From Candidatus Methanosuratincola verstraetei (lineage in GTDB: Archaea > Thermoproteota > Methanomethylicia > Methanomethylicales > Methanomethylicaceae): DNA of 64,000 nt. Positions 40,121-46,600 of this stretch are shown piece after piece (position 1 is the stretch's first letter; each line of letters begins with the position of its first letter). The notes beneath the pieces were generated by a model. The model worked only from the letters and a program-made list of their open reading frames with translations. It searched no databases and had not been told where the DNA came from. The DNA lies in contig CP186953.1 of assembly GCA_049570475.1 (NCBI GenBank), forward strand, positions 1,440,080-1,504,079, in the 5' to 3' direction. The translations under genes and the position numbers were made by a program.

Positions 40121-40219
40121 TTATTCTACTGTTCAATGCACTAATAAATCCAGTGCTGCGCCGTGCGAAATTCTTAAAATAAAGGTGTCAAGATCCGCCA
40201 ATGGTGAGACGAGACGGAT

Positions 40220-41821
40220 TTGCGGAACTTTGCGGCTTTGCTTCTCACAGGTCTGATGACTGGGATTTCCGTCTCCCTCTTCCTGGTGATTTTGGATTTT
40301 TCAAGCAAGGCTCTATCATCGTCTCTGCCTGCCCCACTGCTTGCCTCCTTAAGCATACCTTCTGCTTACCTCATCGTGCGCCTGCTCTCCGACTCAAAGA
40401 AGACCGGTTCCGGCGTGGACAGGTTCCTCGAAACCTACCACCTGAGGCACGGTGCGGCAACACTACGATCCACTGCGGTCAGCGCTGCCTCTTTTGACGA
40501 TGTGTCTGGGAGGTAGCGCGGGACCGGAGGGGCCAGGCTTGACAATGGGCGCAGGGATAGGCTCATGGGTTGCAAGGAGGTTTGGTCTGGATCCTGAGAA
40601 GGTGAAGCGCCTCTACATCACGGGCGCCGCCTCTGGCATCGCTGCAATCTTCAGGGCTCCCCTCACCGGAACTGTCTTCGCGCTCGAGATACCGTACATG
40701 TATGACATGGAAACCGGCGTCTTTGTCTCATCGCTCATTGCTGTTGTAGTCTCCTATGCCTTCACCGTGATCTGCCTCGGCACCGAGCAGCTTTTCCTTT
40801 CCAGTCGGGGACAATCGAAATTACCCCTGATCTTCTGGTCAACTCAGTGGCAGTGGGCTTGATCTCAGCCGCCGTTTCCTTTGCCTTCATTAGCCTCTTC
40901 AAGGCGCTGAAGGCGCAGGCGAATCGCACCAAGTCCGCCCTAGTTCCTTTGGCCGGGGGCAGCGCCTTGGCTGCAATCTCGTTTGCATTCCCAGAAGTGC
41001 TTCGGACCGGCTTTGAGACAATAAAGGGGATAGGCAGCGGGACAATCCCGATCACCCTCTCCTTTGCCGTCGCACTGCTCGTGATGAAGATGCTCGCCAC
41101 CTCTGTTACCCTATCGACTGGCGGATCGGGCGGGCTTTTCCTGCCTTGTATTTTCATGGGCGTGACGCTGGGGGAGGCTTACTCGATAATAACGGGACAT
41201 CCTGATAGTGCGGTGTTCGTCGCTGCTGCTGTCGCCGGGGTGTTTGCAGCCACGAATAAGGCGCTCCTGACCTCGATCCTGTTGGTAAGCGAGACCTTCG
41301 GACCTGTGGTCCTCCTCCCCTCGATAGTCGCAGCCTCGATCTCTTTCCTGATAACAAAAGACCGCTCAATTCACGATCACCAGCTCCTTAGGAGGGTCAC
41401 CAAGAAAGAGATGGCCCTCGAGATGTTCAGCCACAGGATGGGGAACCGGATAAAGGGGGTCAGGGTTGACAGGATCATGGTTTCCAAGCCGGCTGCAATC
41501 GACTCAGGCGCTACTGTGGGCGAGACTCTCGAAACGCTCAAAAAATTCGGATACCGCGTGATGCCGGTGGTTTCGGGGAGGACTTACGTTGGTTACGTTA
41601 CACTGGACATCTTGCTGGTGGAGGAGAAGGAGAAGCCCGTTTCAGAGGTAGTGGTCTTTTCTGATCCCGTCATGCCGGATGAGACTTTGGATCGTCTAGT
41701 TATGCGTATCCTCAACACTGAGGAAACACATGTCTATGTCACGGACGCCGAGTCCAATTTGCTGGGCGTCGTGACCCAGAGCGACATAATCAAAGCCGTC
41801 TTTGAACTTGGGGATCAATGA
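40220..41821 (+). pseudogene. ClC chloride channel with C-terminal CBS pair, interrupted by two frameshifts
   Basis: ClC motifs GSGV, GPEGP and GTVFALEIP, then TM helices and two CBS domains, are spread over three consecutive ORFs in three frames (40220..40516, 40452..40862, 40847..41821). Confidence 0.5.
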
Positions 41822-42545
41822 AGAACGGATTTTGCAGCGGCTGGTAGTCGACAGCGATTGGCTGCAGATCAATCTCCCTGGCCGCCCCCTCCAGTACGCT
41901 GATCAGGTCCATGGGCTTGCAGAGGAAATAGTCCGGCCTTTCATCCCGGGTCTCAAAGAAATTGCAGTCCCCGTAACTGGCGTATGCAGCCTTCATGCCT
42001 ATGCACTTTGCAGCCTTGATGTCCCGCTGTATGCTGTCGCCGACGAATAGGGCCTCCTCCGGTCCGACCCCCAGCAGGCTCAGCGCAACCTCCAGGTGCC
42101 GCGGATCGGGCTTTACCCATTCGGTATCATCCGCACTGACGATCACGTCGAAGTATTGCCTCAGGCGGGTCCTCTCCATCCTTATCGCTGCGTTCGCCCT
42201 CCTGGCATTGGTGACCAGGGCGGTCCTTATGCCCATGTTCCGGAGTATCCTTAGCATCTGGTCCACCCCTTCATAGGGCTTTATCAAGTCGAGCTTTGTC
42301 CTGTCGTAGACCTCGCAGCACTCGAAGTAGAGGTCAAAGTCATAGATTCCAAGGCTTGCCATGTACTCCGCGATCACTGAAAAGCCCTCGTATTCCCCCT
42401 TGCTCCTGATGAACAGATCCAGGAGTTCGAGCCCATTGCCCCTGCCCAACCGGGCCGCCACCGCCCTGCATGCCCCGACCTGCGCATACACGAAGTCCAT
42501 CAGCGTGTTGTCCATGTCAAAGAGCACTGCCTTTATGCTACTCAA
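41790..42545 (-). CDS. HAD-superfamily hydrolase (phosphoglycolate phosphatase-like)
   Basis: Motif I LFDMDNTL, motif III K, motif IV GDSIQRD. Confidence 0.7.
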   Translation of the reverse strand: MSSIKAVLFDMDNTLMDFVYAQVGACRAVAARLGRGNGLELLDLFIRSKGEYEGFSVIAEYMASLGIYDFDLYFECCEVYDRTKLDLIKPYEGVDQMLRILRNMGIRTALVTNARRANAAIRMERTRLRQYFDVIVSADDTEWVKPDPRHLEVALSLLGVGPEEALFVGDSIQRDIKAAKCIGMKAAYASYGDCNFFETRDERPDYFLCKPMDLISVLEGAAREIDLQPIAVDYQPLQNPFFIDPQVQRRL

Positions 42546-43552
42546 CCCTTGAACCCCAACCCTATCAGCTCTCTGCAGGCTTCCAGGTCTTTCTTAAACC
42601 CATCGGCTACCTTTTCATCGAGGAAGAGTGCCTTGAGTTGCTCCGTGTCCCTCTTGCCCCTGAACTCACCGTAAATTACGGCGGAGTTCATCTTGATCAA
42701 TGCCAGCACGCTTGCAAGGTCGGCTATCAGCCTGCACAGCTGCGATCCTGTGCATGATGACTCGCGCGGGATCTCCTTTGGCATCTCGAACAGGAAGTGG
42801 TCGATGCCCTCGGCGTCGCAGATGTCAGTCATCGCGGCGTCTGCGGTTAGCATGACGATCTGTGCGTTCCTCTCGCGGGCGCATTTCGAGACGGTCCTGG
42901 CTATTATCCTGTCCCCCTCCCCCTCTTCGCCAGTGAACCTCTCCGATGCCTCGACTGATATGGCTGCTGCAAGCGCCTTCAGCTCCTTGTTCGCGAACCT
43001 GTATGCCTTCCTCGACTTTTTCATCCTCCTGTTCACCAGCTCGTCCAGCATCCACCTATCGTACGGCGCCGCTTTCTTCATCTGGATTACCTGTTCCTGC
43101 GTGTACTTGTAGTTGTGGACGCTCGTTATCTCGTCCCTGACCGTGCTGACTATGATGCAATCCTTCGGGTCAAGCAGCCCTATGTTGGAGACAAACCTCC
43201 TGTATATTACGTTGGTGTCAAGCGCGAAGAGTGTGTTCTTGTGCGCCCTGTACGCCTTTAGCTTCTCCCTGAATTCCTCCATGTTCGCGAAGCCCAGTAT
43301 CCCGCTGCTCATCATGCACTCGAGGATGTCTGCATACGAGGGCCCCTCGAGGTACGGATCTTCATCCTTTATTCCGAAAGATTCTGGTGTGAGGGATGTG
43401 GACAGCCTGTATTTTCCGTTGAAGCTTGCGCATCTGAAGAGCGGAATGTGGGTGATCGGGTAGGCGAGATCTAAATCCCCAGCGAATAGGTTCACGAGTA
43501 TCTGGATCTCTTCCTCGTTCAGGGTTAATGAGGGCCTGCTTGCTGAGCTCAC
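42542..43552 (-). CDS. PIN-domain nuclease with N-terminal (about 100 aa) and C-terminal extra domains
   Basis: PIN acidic tetrad context FALDTNVIY / VRDEITS / LTADAAMTD / DAEGID; its start overlaps the upstream CARF-like ORF by 4 nt. Confidence 0.45.
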   Translation of the reverse strand: MSSASRPSLTLNEEEIQILVNLFAGDLDLAYPITHIPLFRCASFNGKYRLSTSLTPESFGIKDEDPYLEGPSYADILECMMSSGILGFANMEEFREKLKAYRAHKNTLFALDTNVIYRRFVSNIGLLDPKDCIIVSTVRDEITSVHNYKYTQEQVIQMKKAAPYDRWMLDELVNRRMKKSRKAYRFANKELKALAAAISVEASERFTGEEGEGDRIIARTVSKCARERNAQIVMLTADAAMTDICDAEGIDHFLFEMPKEIPRESSCTGSQLCRLIADLASVLALIKMNSAVIYGEFRGKRDTEQLKALFLDEKVADGFKKDLEACRELIGLGFKG

Positions 43553-44034
43553 TGCTTCCCCACACCCGCCTCTTCAATGAAGTCTCGGAGGGTCTGCCTG
43601 CCCAGCGGGATCATCATGTAGGGCTTTGCGGAGTCGCTGGTGTCGTCTATCTGCAGGTAAAATATGTGATCGACCCCGACGTTATTCAACGGCACCAGCG
43701 CCCCGGCCACTAGGGCCTTCCTCCCTGGGGTTATGTCCACGGCAATCTTATTTCCAGAAGCCTTCCATTCCTTGATGATCTCGGTTATCTTTCTGCCCGC
43801 CTCGATGAAGCCCCCGTCCCTGACAATTTCGCTCCGTATCTCCGGCTGGAAGCCGTATTTGGCTGAGACTGCCCTGATGCCGGCTGAAGCCGCTTCTAGA
43901 CCATCAGCAGTGCCCTCTTCCGCGAATATGACGACCTCATCCGGCTGGTAGTCCCTTTCCCTTACCACTGCGTAGTACGAATTCACCAGTGCCCATCCGC
44001 TCCTCCCCAGCATCGTGATGTATTTGCACCCCAA
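43549..44034 (-). CDS. Minimal stand-alone CARF-like Rossmann sensor domain protein
   Basis: 161 aa; N-terminal strand-Gly ITMLGRSGWALV and the D-x-T-P/G-G-x-K-like motif VDITPGRKALVAGAL resemble CARF core motifs; no effector domain fused. Confidence 0.35.
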   Translation of the reverse strand: MGCKYITMLGRSGWALVNSYYAVVRERDYQPDEVVIFAEEGTADGLEAASAGIRAVSAKYGFQPEIRSEIVRDGGFIEAGRKITEIIKEWKASGNKIAVDITPGRKALVAGALVPLNNVGVDHIFYLQIDDTSDSAKPYMMIPLGRQTLRDFIEEAGVGKQ

Positions 44035-44173
44035 TCAGAACAGCCTCCTGGTCAGACGCTTGGCCCTTCGCCCTGCAAATCCAAGGTGCCGGGCGGATCC
44101 TCTGCACCCGCGCGCCGATTGATCCGATCCGGCTCCTGGCTTAGGTCCATCCTTATCCCGGGTCATGTTCTCA

Positions 44174-44443
44174 TCATCTCCTTCTGCCCTTTGCGCTCTT
44201 CAGGCTTTGCCCAACTGGGGCCTTTCCAGCCATGATGATCCATGAGCCTTTCAGGCTGCCGCCGCAGATTGGGCAGCCGCGCCTCTTGCATGCCGGGCAG
44301 ACCCTCGCCCTGGTGCCGCAAGTTGTGCACTCAGCTTCGACAACAGGAAGGCAATCGCGCCCCTCTATCATCCTCCCGCAAAATTCACAAGAAGAGAACG
44401 TTATGAACAACGGGACCACCGGAAACATGTCTCTCGCCATCAA
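44174..44443 (-). CDS. Small double zinc-ribbon protein
   Basis: Four CxxC pairs (CEFC, CTTC, CPAC, CPIC) in under 90 aa, with a basic tail. Confidence 0.35.
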   Translation of the reverse strand: MMARDMFPVVPLFITFSSCEFCGRMIEGRDCLPVVEAECTTCGTRARVCPACKRRGCPICGGSLKGSWIIMAGKAPVGQSLKSAKGRRR

Positions 44444-44479: not shown

Positions 44480-45247
44480 TTAATTTTGGGATCGGGCTTC
44501 GAAGCCATTGATCAGCAAGGTGTTCCTGCCCTTCTCCGTAAGACGTACCTTGCTGTTCCTCCCCCTCCCGTCCACCACCAGCAATTCCTTCTCCTCAAGC
44601 GGCCTGATGTACCTGCTCTCTAGTATGACATGCCCGTATGGCTTTGACTTGCCTTCAACCGAGAAGAGGCCCTTCTCCAGGCAGCTCTTCAGCAGCTGGC
44701 TCTTCTTGGGATCTCTTAACTGGTCCACCAGGACAAGGAAGTTCAACTCATCTGGCGTAGGCAGGTCGATCGAGTAGTGCGGCACTATCTCGATCTTGGA
44801 GAGGCCAGCCGAGTTCTGCGCCCTATTGGGATCTACTACCTCGATGTACCTCTCAGGGTAGGCGTAGTAGGCGCTCACGCCCTTCTTGAATGTGAGTGTT
44901 GCGAAGTGGCATGCGACACCCTGTATCGACCCTCCCGAGGATATGTTCACGAAAACATGGTTTCCGGATTCCAGCTCCCCCTCTATTATCTTCCTGCATG
45001 TGTAGATCAGCTTGAATAGGTCCAGCTCTGCCCTGTGGATCTGGTACGGCTTCTGCGCCCTTTCAAGCTCTTCGACTATCCTCTCTTGGCAATTGAGACC
45101 CCTCTGGTTGCTGTCCTGCCTGACAATCAGGTGGATCCTCTCTCCTTTCATCATCATGAACGGGAGAACGACCCTGTCGATCTCGAAGCCAACCGGCGCG
45201 ATGTGGGCCCTCTCAGGGAACCTTCCATTGGCGATGCTTTGAGACAT
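44480..45247 (-). CDS. Csa3-like CARF plus winged-HTH transcriptional regulator
   Basis: N-terminal HIAPVGFEIDRVVLPF resembles the Csa3 VTLGFDE start; Gly-rich NISSGGSIQG loop; C-terminal wHTH ...RNSKVRLTEKGRNTL. Confidence 0.4.
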   Translation of the reverse strand: MSQSIANGRFPERAHIAPVGFEIDRVVLPFMMMKGERIHLIVRQDSNQRGLNCQERIVEELERAQKPYQIHRAELDLFKLIYTCRKIIEGELESGNHVFVNISSGGSIQGVACHFATLTFKKGVSAYYAYPERYIEVVDPNRAQNSAGLSKIEIVPHYSIDLPTPDELNFLVLVDQLRDPKKSQLLKSCLEKGLFSVEGKSKPYGHVILESRYIRPLEEKELLVVDGRGRNSKVRLTEKGRNTLLINGFEARSQN

Positions 45248-45302: not shown

Positions 45303-46004
45303 GTGGGCTGCTTGGGCAACCTCAAGGCGATAGTCGACGAGTACATGAGCATGGCGCGGGGCATAGACGAAATGTGCACCCGGTGCCTGAGGACCGAGCG
45401 ATGGGGCGGCAGCGTCACCCTGATGGTCGTGGACGCCGCATTCACGTCGATAGGGCTGAACTATTTCACGGCAGTCGTGCCGAAGGTTGACTATTTCAGG
45501 AGGGAGTTCGTGGAGGCTGGGCGAATCAAAACGCTAAAGGATCTGGCAGAGTCCGGCACCGACGAACTGCTGGAGGTCTGGAGGAACCGGAGGTCCTGGG
45601 AGGCTGCGCGGGGGATCGCGTCTTACCTCTCCGCCCTCCCCTACGGGACAGACCGGGAAGCGCTCAGGTCTTGGGCCAGATCGTCTTCCCTGGTAAACTG
45701 GAGGCTGGACCCCGTTGGGCGCATAAGAGGGGTCGGGCTCGTCACATACCAGTACCTCAGGATGATGGGGGGCGTCGACACGGTGATGCCGGACAAGATC
45801 GTGAAGCGCGTGATAAACGAGATGCTTGTCAAAGCCGGAGAGGAACCAGTAGAGGACAATTTGGCGTTCATATTGAAGGCGGAGGAGATCGCCAAGCGGA
45901 CGGGGTACCGCCCGATCGACCTCTGCTGGATGACCTGGATGATCCAGCCCGAGGGGAAGATCATGAGGATGGACAAGTACTCGGGATTGCTCCACATGAT
46001 CTGA
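45303..46004 (+). CDS. Helix-hairpin-helix protein, possible HhH-GPD-like DNA glycosylase fold
   Basis: IRGVGLVTYQYLRMMGGVDTVMPDKIVKRV resembles the LPGVG..TA....VDTHv.Rv HhH element of EndoIII-like glycosylases; the catalytic residues are not clearly identifiable. Confidence 0.25.
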   Translation: MGCLGNLKAIVDEYMSMARGIDEMCTRCLRTERWGGSVTLMVVDAAFTSIGLNYFTAVVPKVDYFRREFVEAGRIKTLKDLAESGTDELLEVWRNRRSWEAARGIASYLSALPYGTDREALRSWARSSSLVNWRLDPVGRIRGVGLVTYQYLRMMGGVDTVMPDKIVKRVINEMLVKAGEEPVEDNLAFILKAEEIAKRTGYRPIDLCWMTWMIQPEGKIMRMDKYSGLLHMI

Positions 46005-46054: not shown

Positions 46055-46600
46055 CTACTCTACAAGCAGGAGGCCGTAGAAGGAGGGCTTCGCATCCCTG
46101 CCCTTGCAAACGCCGATCTTGTAGCCCGCCTTTGCCGCTGTGGCGAAGACGTCGATGCCGCACCCCTCCATTGAGGGCCTCAGCTTCTCAGGGTGGATGC
46201 ACGATTCGAGGTTGCACTCCTCGCAGTATGGGCAGCCGTCTGTGGCCAAGGCAAAAGCCTTGTAGTGCCCCCTCAGGAAGGCCTCGCGCTCCAGCCTGAG
46301 CATCAGGTCGTGGCAGAACAATGAGAACTCGCTCAAGTCAGGGGGCTCAATCCTCACCAGTATCGCGTGCCTGTACTCGCCTAGGACCCTGCTGAACTCC
46401 TCCGGGGTAGGCGAAAACGGAGGGCAAGCCAGGGATCTTCCGTAGCCGTCGCATCCGTACTGGCACTTAAGCCTCACCCAGTTGCCGACGACCACTTCTT
46501 TTGCCTCTATGACCCTCGCATCCTCCGCACCCAGCGACACGGCGACCCTGCAAAGCTCAGCGAGCCTCTCCCCCTCTTCGCATTCGGACAATTGGCGCAC
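46055..46600 (-). CDS. DUF2284-like predicted metal-binding protein
   Basis: Cys cluster CQYGCDGYGRSLACPP and a second CPYCEEC cluster. Confidence 0.4.
   Translation of the reverse strand: MRQLSECEEGERLAELCRVAVSLGAEDARVIEAKEVVVGNWVRLKCQYGCDGYGRSLACPPFSPTPEEFSRVLGEYRHAILVRIEPPDLSEFSLFCHDLMLRLEREAFLRGHYKAFALATDGCPYCEECNLESCIHPEKLRPSMEGCGIDVFATAAKAGYKIGVCKGRDAKPSFYGLLLVE

Follow-up and report, generated by a model that had tools for sequence, protein, structure and literature searches.

The 64-kb stretch of the genome of the methanogenic archaeon Candidatus Methanosuratincola verstraetei analysed here (contig CP186953.1, positions 1,440,080 to 1,504,079; hereafter the window) holds a small gene for a CARF-like protein whose end overlaps the start of a PIN nuclease gene, and this raises the question of whether the two products act together as a sensor and its effector and, if so, in what kind of system. 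A sequence-only reading of this DNA had proposed a translationally coupled, split sensor-effector pair, and both of its open reading frames (ORFs), at 43549..44034 and 42542..43552, were recovered on the minus strand, as was the HAD gene that follows them. We consider that the operon probably represents a two-polypeptide form of the archaeal CARF-(HTH)-PIN effector family, set within a coupled CARF-PIN-HAD operon, whilst the identity of the pair itself as a split CARF_m1-PIN is, in our judgement, very likely. That the two parts are a split sensor and effector acting together is strongly supported by their pairing in 105 loci, by independent fusions and by superposition on a solved CARF-PIN fusion. 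The parts of the unit are listed below, the Shine-Dalgarno-like motif and the two overlaps being read directly from the sequence.

44044..44049, minus strand: AGGAGG Shine-Dalgarno-like motif, 9 nt upstream of the CARF TTG start
43549..44034, minus strand: gene for the CARF_m1 sensor subunit, 161 aa, TTG start
43549..43552, minus strand: GTGA overlap, the CARF TGA stop lying in the PIN GTG start
42542..43552, minus strand: PIN gene, 336 aa, GTG start
43244..43552, minus strand: N-terminal alpha/beta domain of the PIN protein, aa 1-103, from the AlphaFold2 model
42791..43234, minus strand: PIN_4-type nuclease core, aa 107-254, with D112, E141, D214 and D238
42545..42790, minus strand: C-terminal domain of the PIN protein, aa 255-336, from the AlphaFold2 model and family-wide conservation
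42542..42545, minus strand: TTGA overlap, the PIN TGA stop lying in the HAD TTG start
41790..42545, minus strand: HAD-IA phosphatase gene, 251 aa, TTG start (Pfam HAD_2, E 2.5e-30)

The CARF and PIN genes do share four nucleotides, as had been proposed, but the shared sequence is GTGA with a GTG start and not ATGA. No start codon other than this GTG is possible for PIN upstream of E15, Q17, L19 and N21, the conserved residues near its N-terminus, and in close relatives the same position is occupied by ATG. An ATG at codon 8 was considered as an alternative start for the CARF gene and rejected, as the first beta-strand, which is kept in all homologues of a 36-sequence alignment, would be lost. 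The proposal of a two-gene coupled pair was right as regards the coupling of CARF to PIN and had overlooked a third gene: the HAD gene is coupled to the PIN stop by the TTGA overlap, and the unit therefore comprises three genes, CARF, PIN and HAD. At overlapping stop and start codons termination-reinitiation is expected. Ribosomes ending the CARF ORF would thus re-initiate at the weak GTG and those ending the PIN ORF at the weak TTG, such that the three proteins would be made together, with CARF and PIN presumably in fixed stoichiometry. By itself the CARF/PIN overlap is ordinary, since 4-nt overlaps are found at about 5 of the 45 same-strand junctions of the window; what goes beyond chance expectation is the conservation of the tight CARF/PIN junction, not the overlap alone.

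The 161-aa product is a CARF domain of the catalogued minor family CARF_m1, and its earlier label of 'CARF-like' is borne out by profile, by signature motifs and by fold. In the PADLOC library, whose CARF-family profiles are labelled CARF1, CARF3, CARF_m1 and so on, residues 4-156 align with positions 3-154 of the 156-position profile PDLC01971 CARF_m1--CARF (E 2.2e-56), and the protein also matches the CARF half of the CARF_m1--CARF_PIN profile; we take CARF_m1 to be a minor family of the Makarova 2020 profile set. The motifs are LGRSGW (aa 9-14), DITPGRK (aa 100-106) and AKPYMMIP (aa 136-143), and in the alignment of 36 homologues strand 1 is followed by LGRSxW and strand 4 by DITPGRK, with T102, G104 and K106 invariant. 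What we take to be the CARF hallmark of Makarova 2014, a polar residue after strand 1 together with [DN]x[ST]xxx[RK] after strand 4, is accordingly seen in LGRS12GW and D100-I-T102-P-G-R-K106, and the protein has the Rossmann-like CARF fold. A profile built from the 36 homologues finds SiRe_0806, Sso1393 and Crn1/Sso2081 among PDB sequences, the best genuine match being SiRe_0806, which carries the same DITPGRK motif; TAL-effector matches ranked above the CARF proteins in this search were rejected as repeat artefacts.

The 336-aa product is, from its sequence, a three-domain PIN_4-type nuclease with an intact acidic tetrad, and metal-dependent activity is predicted for it. Its sequence is 100% identical to that of a protein named from Candidatus Methanosuratincola. 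The label 'PIN nuclease' holds, with Pfam PIN_4 above its cut-off (24.3 bits against a gathering score of 21.9, aa 111-251) and a fold that matches PIN domains. An exhaustive profile search for PIN homologues returned 248 cluster representatives among 1.84 billion proteins, 100 of which were aligned. The sole invariant columns of this alignment, which extends to 18% identity, are D112, E141, R181, D214 and D238, so that the tetrad D112, E141, D214 and D238, on whose conservation the sequence-only reading had made its proposal depend, is kept in every one of the 100 homologues. The AlphaFold2 model of the protein (pLDDT, the predicted local distance difference test score, 94.5; pTM, the predicted template modelling score, 0.92) resolves three domains and agrees with the N-terminal domain of about 100 aa and the C-terminal domain of about 80 aa that had been proposed to flank the nuclease. 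No Pfam family was found for either of these two domains in isolation; in fused homologues, the stretch between CARF and PIN that bears the label 'HTH' corresponds in position to the N-terminal one. The closest PIN-fold relatives are the RNA-processing enzymes Rrp44, Utp24 and Nob1, and a search of PDB sequences with a small PIN alignment gave noise only.

The evidence that the two proteins belong together comes from their pairing across archaea. In a PIN-anchored scan of one genome per species, PIN homologues turned up at 43 loci, which belong to Methanosuratincola relatives, Archaeoglobi, Methanomicrobiales, Thermococci, Hadarchaeota and Thermoplasmata. In every one that retains upstream DNA and the PIN N-terminus a CARF gene lies upstream, directly adjoining the PIN gene except in loci L016 and L018, where a gene pair of about 650 nt is inserted. 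A CARF-anchored scan of metagenomes gave 80 loci, 72 with room for a downstream gene, and in 70 of these 72 the gene immediately 3' of CARF is PIN, the two exceptions being one PIN gene disrupted by an insertion sequence and one contig end. Even a PIN homologue of 26% identity is still preceded by a CARF_m1 gene with a 4-nt overlap, and over 105 non-redundant loci the pairing is near-obligatory. Scans of viral contigs for both the CARF and the PIN protein were negative.

The junction itself was surveyed at 101 non-redundant CARF/PIN junctions from other archaea. A 4-nt overlap is present in 44 of them (27 ATGA, 15 GTGA and 2 TTGA), with the remainder made up of overlaps of 1 nt (5) or 8-26 nt (34), gaps of 11 nt or less (12), the inserted gene pair of about 650 nt (4) and fusions (2); in all, 95 of the 101 are overlapped or no more than 11 nt apart. 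Both the pairing and the tight junction are kept across at least nine archaeal lineages. Single-chain fusions form protein clusters of their own (P0185, P0187 and P0211, of 527-531 aa, and P0132), and P0185 matches the PADLOC profile CARF_m1--CARF_PIN end to end. For the window PIN protein, the match is to the PIN half of this profile (E 8.8e-16), the window CARF and PIN being two ORFs in different frames and not one polypeptide. A further candidate fusion, P0004 (the ORF at 1587-3077 of L005, from a Methanosuratincola metagenome-assembled genome), was rejected as strong evidence of natural fusion: there the loss of 2 nt shortly before the CARF ORF ends joins CARF in frame to PIN, and because this deletion lies on a contig of 3.4x coverage, and may be an assembly error, P0004 was not weighed as such.

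Some of these loci carry insertions of their own. In L097 (453-1605) the PIN gene is broken some 40 codons in by an ORF of 318 aa with the look of an insertion-sequence transposase; no other CARF locus with room is without an intact PIN gene. In L016 (7309-7999) ORFs of 95 and 138 aa stand between CARF and PIN with all junctions overlapping, and similar gaps of about 650 nt occur in L018 and L116; going by their sequences, the two ORFs resemble an AbrB-type antitoxin and a VapC-like PIN toxin. The same locus has an additional 217-aa ORF of no assigned family between PIN and HAD.

What the pair would look like as a working unit is suggested by the fused members of the family. Makarova et al. 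(2014) had entered such fusions in their supplement as an archaeal family, 'CARF_HTH_PIN' (e.g. ST0035, DKAM_0747), and a solved fused prototype is available in SiRe_0806, for which PDB entry 9JXX bears the title 'SiRe_0806 in complex with cA4'; a literature search found no paper on SiRe_0806/9JXW. The joined CARF-PIN pair, as an AlphaFold model of the fused chain, superposes as a whole on SiRe_0806, with the same domain order and architecture. SiRe_0806 is a single chain of some 430 aa, whereas the window has two overlapping genes, split exactly at the boundary between the CARF and the middle domain, and differs further in having a HAD phosphatase coupled downstream and in an identity of 14-15%. 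From the CARF_m1 family, of which the window pair is a member, nothing essential sets it apart, although the CARF_m1 profiles leave the separate PIN partner without a profile of its own and do not have the HAD, beta-CASP and regulator links in their names. On the strength of the fusions and the structural match we think it likely that CARF and PIN form a physical complex, in which the CARF subunit, probably dimeric, would dock on the PIN protein's N-terminal domain and so restore the architecture of SiRe_0806. A nucleotide second messenger, of which cyclic tetra-adenylate (cA4) is the most likely, would bind the CARF dimer and allosterically switch the metal-dependent RNase; cA4 as the ligand, by analogy with the title of the SiRe_0806 structure, is a tentative assignment. 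With no cas10 gene or CRISPR array nearby, the signal would have to be supplied by a type III system encoded at another place in the genome, or by some other source.

The third gene is a frequent member of the unit. Among 77 non-redundant loci with room for it, the HAD gene lies directly 3' of PIN in 56 and one gene away in 5, and it is absent from 14, mainly in Thermococci, Thermoplasmata and a distant branch; in Hadarchaeota the gene order is HAD-CARF-PIN. Inspection of the window protein shows its catalytic motifs intact (D10-x-D12-x-T14, T112, K145 and D170/D175), and in a crude scan no hydrophobic run of at least 15 residues was found, as in a soluble protein. Among the closest known systems is Chp, a CRISPR-associated CARF-HAD phosphatase that binds cA4 and dephosphorylates ATP, dATP and IMP (PMC12715507). 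Both combine a CARF sensor with a HAD phosphatase whose catalytic motifs are intact. Chp, however, is a single membrane protein made up of HAD, four transmembrane helices and CARF, whereas here the HAD protein is separate and soluble and the operon adds a PIN RNase. The HAD phosphatase would act in the same response as the PIN subunit, either by depleting nucleotides in the manner of Chp, with ATP, dATP and IMP as its substrates (a speculation by analogy), or by trimming phosphates from the signal or from the cleavage products.

Upstream of the CARF gene the window holds three further genes that recur in the neighbourhood of the module or take a place in it.

44174..44443, minus strand: Cys-rich zinc-ribbon ORF, 89 aa, between the regulator and CARF, only in Methanosuratincola-type loci
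44480..45247, minus strand: Csa3/HFX_2341-like regulator with a CARF-like N-terminal domain and a winged helix (Pfam HFX_2341_N, E 1.2e-23; DUF6293_C)
46055..46600, minus strand: DUF2284 metal-binding protein, 2.5 kb upstream of the PIN gene

The regulator matches the PADLOC profile CARF3--CARF (E 2e-42), and 32 of 138 loci, in other lineages too, have a member of its family near the module; HFX_2341 is a global repressor with cas genes among its targets (PMC11434293). A beta-CASP-type nuclease of about 512 aa (Lactamase_B and RMMBL domains) is encoded upstream, in the same orientation, at 36 of 75 loci, 16 of which have it adjacent. The place of this gene in other lineages is held in Methanosuratincola-type loci by the zinc-ribbon ORF, which shows a weak, sub-threshold similarity to the zinc-binding domain of IS91 transposase. 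The DUF2284 gene adjoins CARF in Thermococci (L031, L039, L042 and metagenome loci L121-L130), a second cross-lineage association, and no further gene family common across lineages was found among the recurrent neighbours of the module. Between the regulator and DUF2284, on the opposite strand, a 233-aa ORF (45303-46004) conserved in Methanosuratincola-type loci has no match in Pfam, NCBIfam or PADLOC. On the other side of the unit, the CLC chloride-channel gene beside HAD (40201-41821) is split into three ORFs of 98, 136 and 324 aa, as it is in L048; it is intact at 535 aa in L047, and the breaks are either frameshifts, as in a pseudogene, or assembly errors.

Other lineages surround the module differently. 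Archaeoglobus-type loci have an McrBC cassette between the beta-CASP and CARF genes: in L001 (1-5999), as also in L010, L012, L013, L015 and metagenome loci, it consists of a small ORF, a 272-aa protein that found no Pfam match, McrB and McrC. McrC ends 1 nt before the CARF start, and a TPR protein is met repeatedly in related loci, L015 among them. In L049 (1-9984, a JGI metagenome contig with CARF product P0094) the module and an adjacent beta-CASP gene adjoin methyl-coenzyme M reductase accessory genes and are surrounded by genes for type I restriction-modification, HepT/MNT and PemK and by a further HFX_2341_N gene, a defence-island-like setting unlike that of the window.

Several points weigh against reading the operon as a split CARF-PIN effector under nucleotide control. 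No linkage to type III CRISPR-Cas was found in the window or the scanned loci: a scan of 58 loci, namely the 64-kb window and the first 57 of the others, found no CRISPR array, and cas families are lacking among the window genes examined and among the recurrent neighbours of the module. The sole CRISPR-like signal, of repeated k-mers in L025 (11031-14445), was rejected, the 22 copies of a 78-84-nt unit being in multiples of three and having no spacers; they form a repetitive coding region inserted between PIN and HAD. Fused CARF_HTH_PIN members are likewise mostly flagged outside CRISPR neighbourhoods (Makarova et al. 2014, supplement), and a literature search found no paper on CRISPR in Methanosuratincola. 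The neighbours in Methanosuratincola, including the other large genes of the window, are housekeeping genes, and in two Helarchaeota metagenome-assembled genomes, L051 (8001-9480) and L052, CARF-PIN without HAD sits inside the conserved exosome superoperon, in the order proteasome alpha, SBDS, Rrp4, Rrp41, Rrp42, [CARF, PIN], L37ae, Pcc1 and prefoldin beta; because of these two settings a non-defence role or another ligand is possible. In addition, Pfam Csa3_N scores below threshold on the CARF protein (21.7 bits against a gathering score of 27), the structural match uses an AlphaFold model of a covalently linked, frameshift-derived fusion (P0004), the identity to SiRe_0806 is low, ligand binding and the heteromer are both things that we infer, and the role of HAD in the module is speculative.

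The absence of CRISPR linkage, the housekeeping neighbours and the Helarchaeota pair between Rrp42 and L37ae are what would be expected if the genes served housekeeping or stress RNA metabolism, with CARF sensing an endogenous cue such as RNA ends with a 2',3'-cyclic phosphate, as has been proposed for RtcR, and PIN, beta-CASP and HAD processing or repairing cellular RNA. The beta-CASP RNA-metabolising metallo-beta-lactamase upstream in 36 of 75 loci and the RNA-processing enzymes that are the closest PIN relatives fit the same account. We nonetheless regard it as distinctly unlikely, given the patchy distribution of the family (248 cluster representatives among 1.84 billion proteins), the defence genes that Archaeoglobi and Methanomicrobia have within or beside the module (McrBC at 12-15 loci, restriction-modification, HepT/MNT and PemK) and the crystallisation of the closest solved homologue, SiRe_0806, with cA4. 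It is also unlikely, in our view, that regulator, beta-CASP, CARF_m1, PIN and HAD make up a self-contained, CRISPR-independent archaeal system of RNA surveillance or defence. CARF would then sense, for example, pieces of RNA with 2',3'-cyclic phosphates, or a nucleotide that its partner enzymes make or trim, and not cA4 made by Cas10, and PIN, beta-CASP and HAD would act in sequence on RNA; if this were true, a genuine connection with RNA turnover would lie behind the position of the pair within the Helarchaeota exosome superoperon.

Two further explanations would dissolve the sensor-effector pair itself. The small CARF protein could be mainly a stand-alone ring nuclease of the Crn1 kind that degrades cyclic oligoadenylate and is merely co-expressed with an independent PIN RNase. 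This we hold to be quite improbable: Crn1 ring nucleases (Sso2081, Sso1393 and Sis0811) work alone on cA4, whereas CARF_m1 is essentially always paired with or fused to PIN, the fused model superposes on SiRe_0806 as a whole, and S12 lies outside the invariant or at least 90%-conserved columns of the CARF alignment. A ring-nuclease role alongside sensing may nevertheless exist, and the two are not exclusive because Csm6 has been reported to unite sensor, effector and ring-nuclease functions. The remaining explanation, which the sequence-only reading had offered as an alternative, is a type II toxin-antitoxin system like VapBC, in which the PIN toxin would be neutralised by a labile CARF antitoxin and no nucleotide signal would take part. 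Genes for PIN toxins typically follow a small gene that overlaps them, a pattern that the 4-nt overlap fits, and the fused family is labelled 'toxin' in Makarova 2014. The features that define VapBC, however, are a DNA-binding antitoxin (AbrB, RHH, HTH or PHD) and a single-domain VapC of about 130-150 aa, whereas the window has a CARF fold upstream and a three-domain PIN protein of 336 aa; moreover, fusions exist and genuine VapBC pairs appear in these loci as separate insertions, all of which disfavours the alternative and makes it, to our minds, highly improbable.

The split CARF-PIN effector that we prefer is in part already known, since profiles for stand-alone CARF_m1 and for fused CARF_m1-PIN are published and a fused homologue has a structure with cA4. 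In the literature searched, outside whose scope lies the 2020 CARF classification paper, neither a description of the conserved HAD, beta-CASP and Csa3-like coupling nor experimental work on the split CARF-PIN form was found, and neither is claimed here as new. To our knowledge, sensor and effector share a single chain in the CARF effectors that have been studied to date. A CARF effector that is naturally made of two subunits would offer a clean system in which to follow how a ligand signal passes from a CARF dimer to a nuclease across a protein-protein interface, and the coupling to HAD, along with beta-CASP and the Csa3-like regulator elsewhere, suggests a multi-enzyme response module. Current concepts are left unchanged, the module being a tidy example and not a surprise, and a good experimental lead; because the family is mostly unlinked to CRISPR loci, it bears on the wider question of how many CARF proteins heed type III signals in trans and how many respond to other cues.

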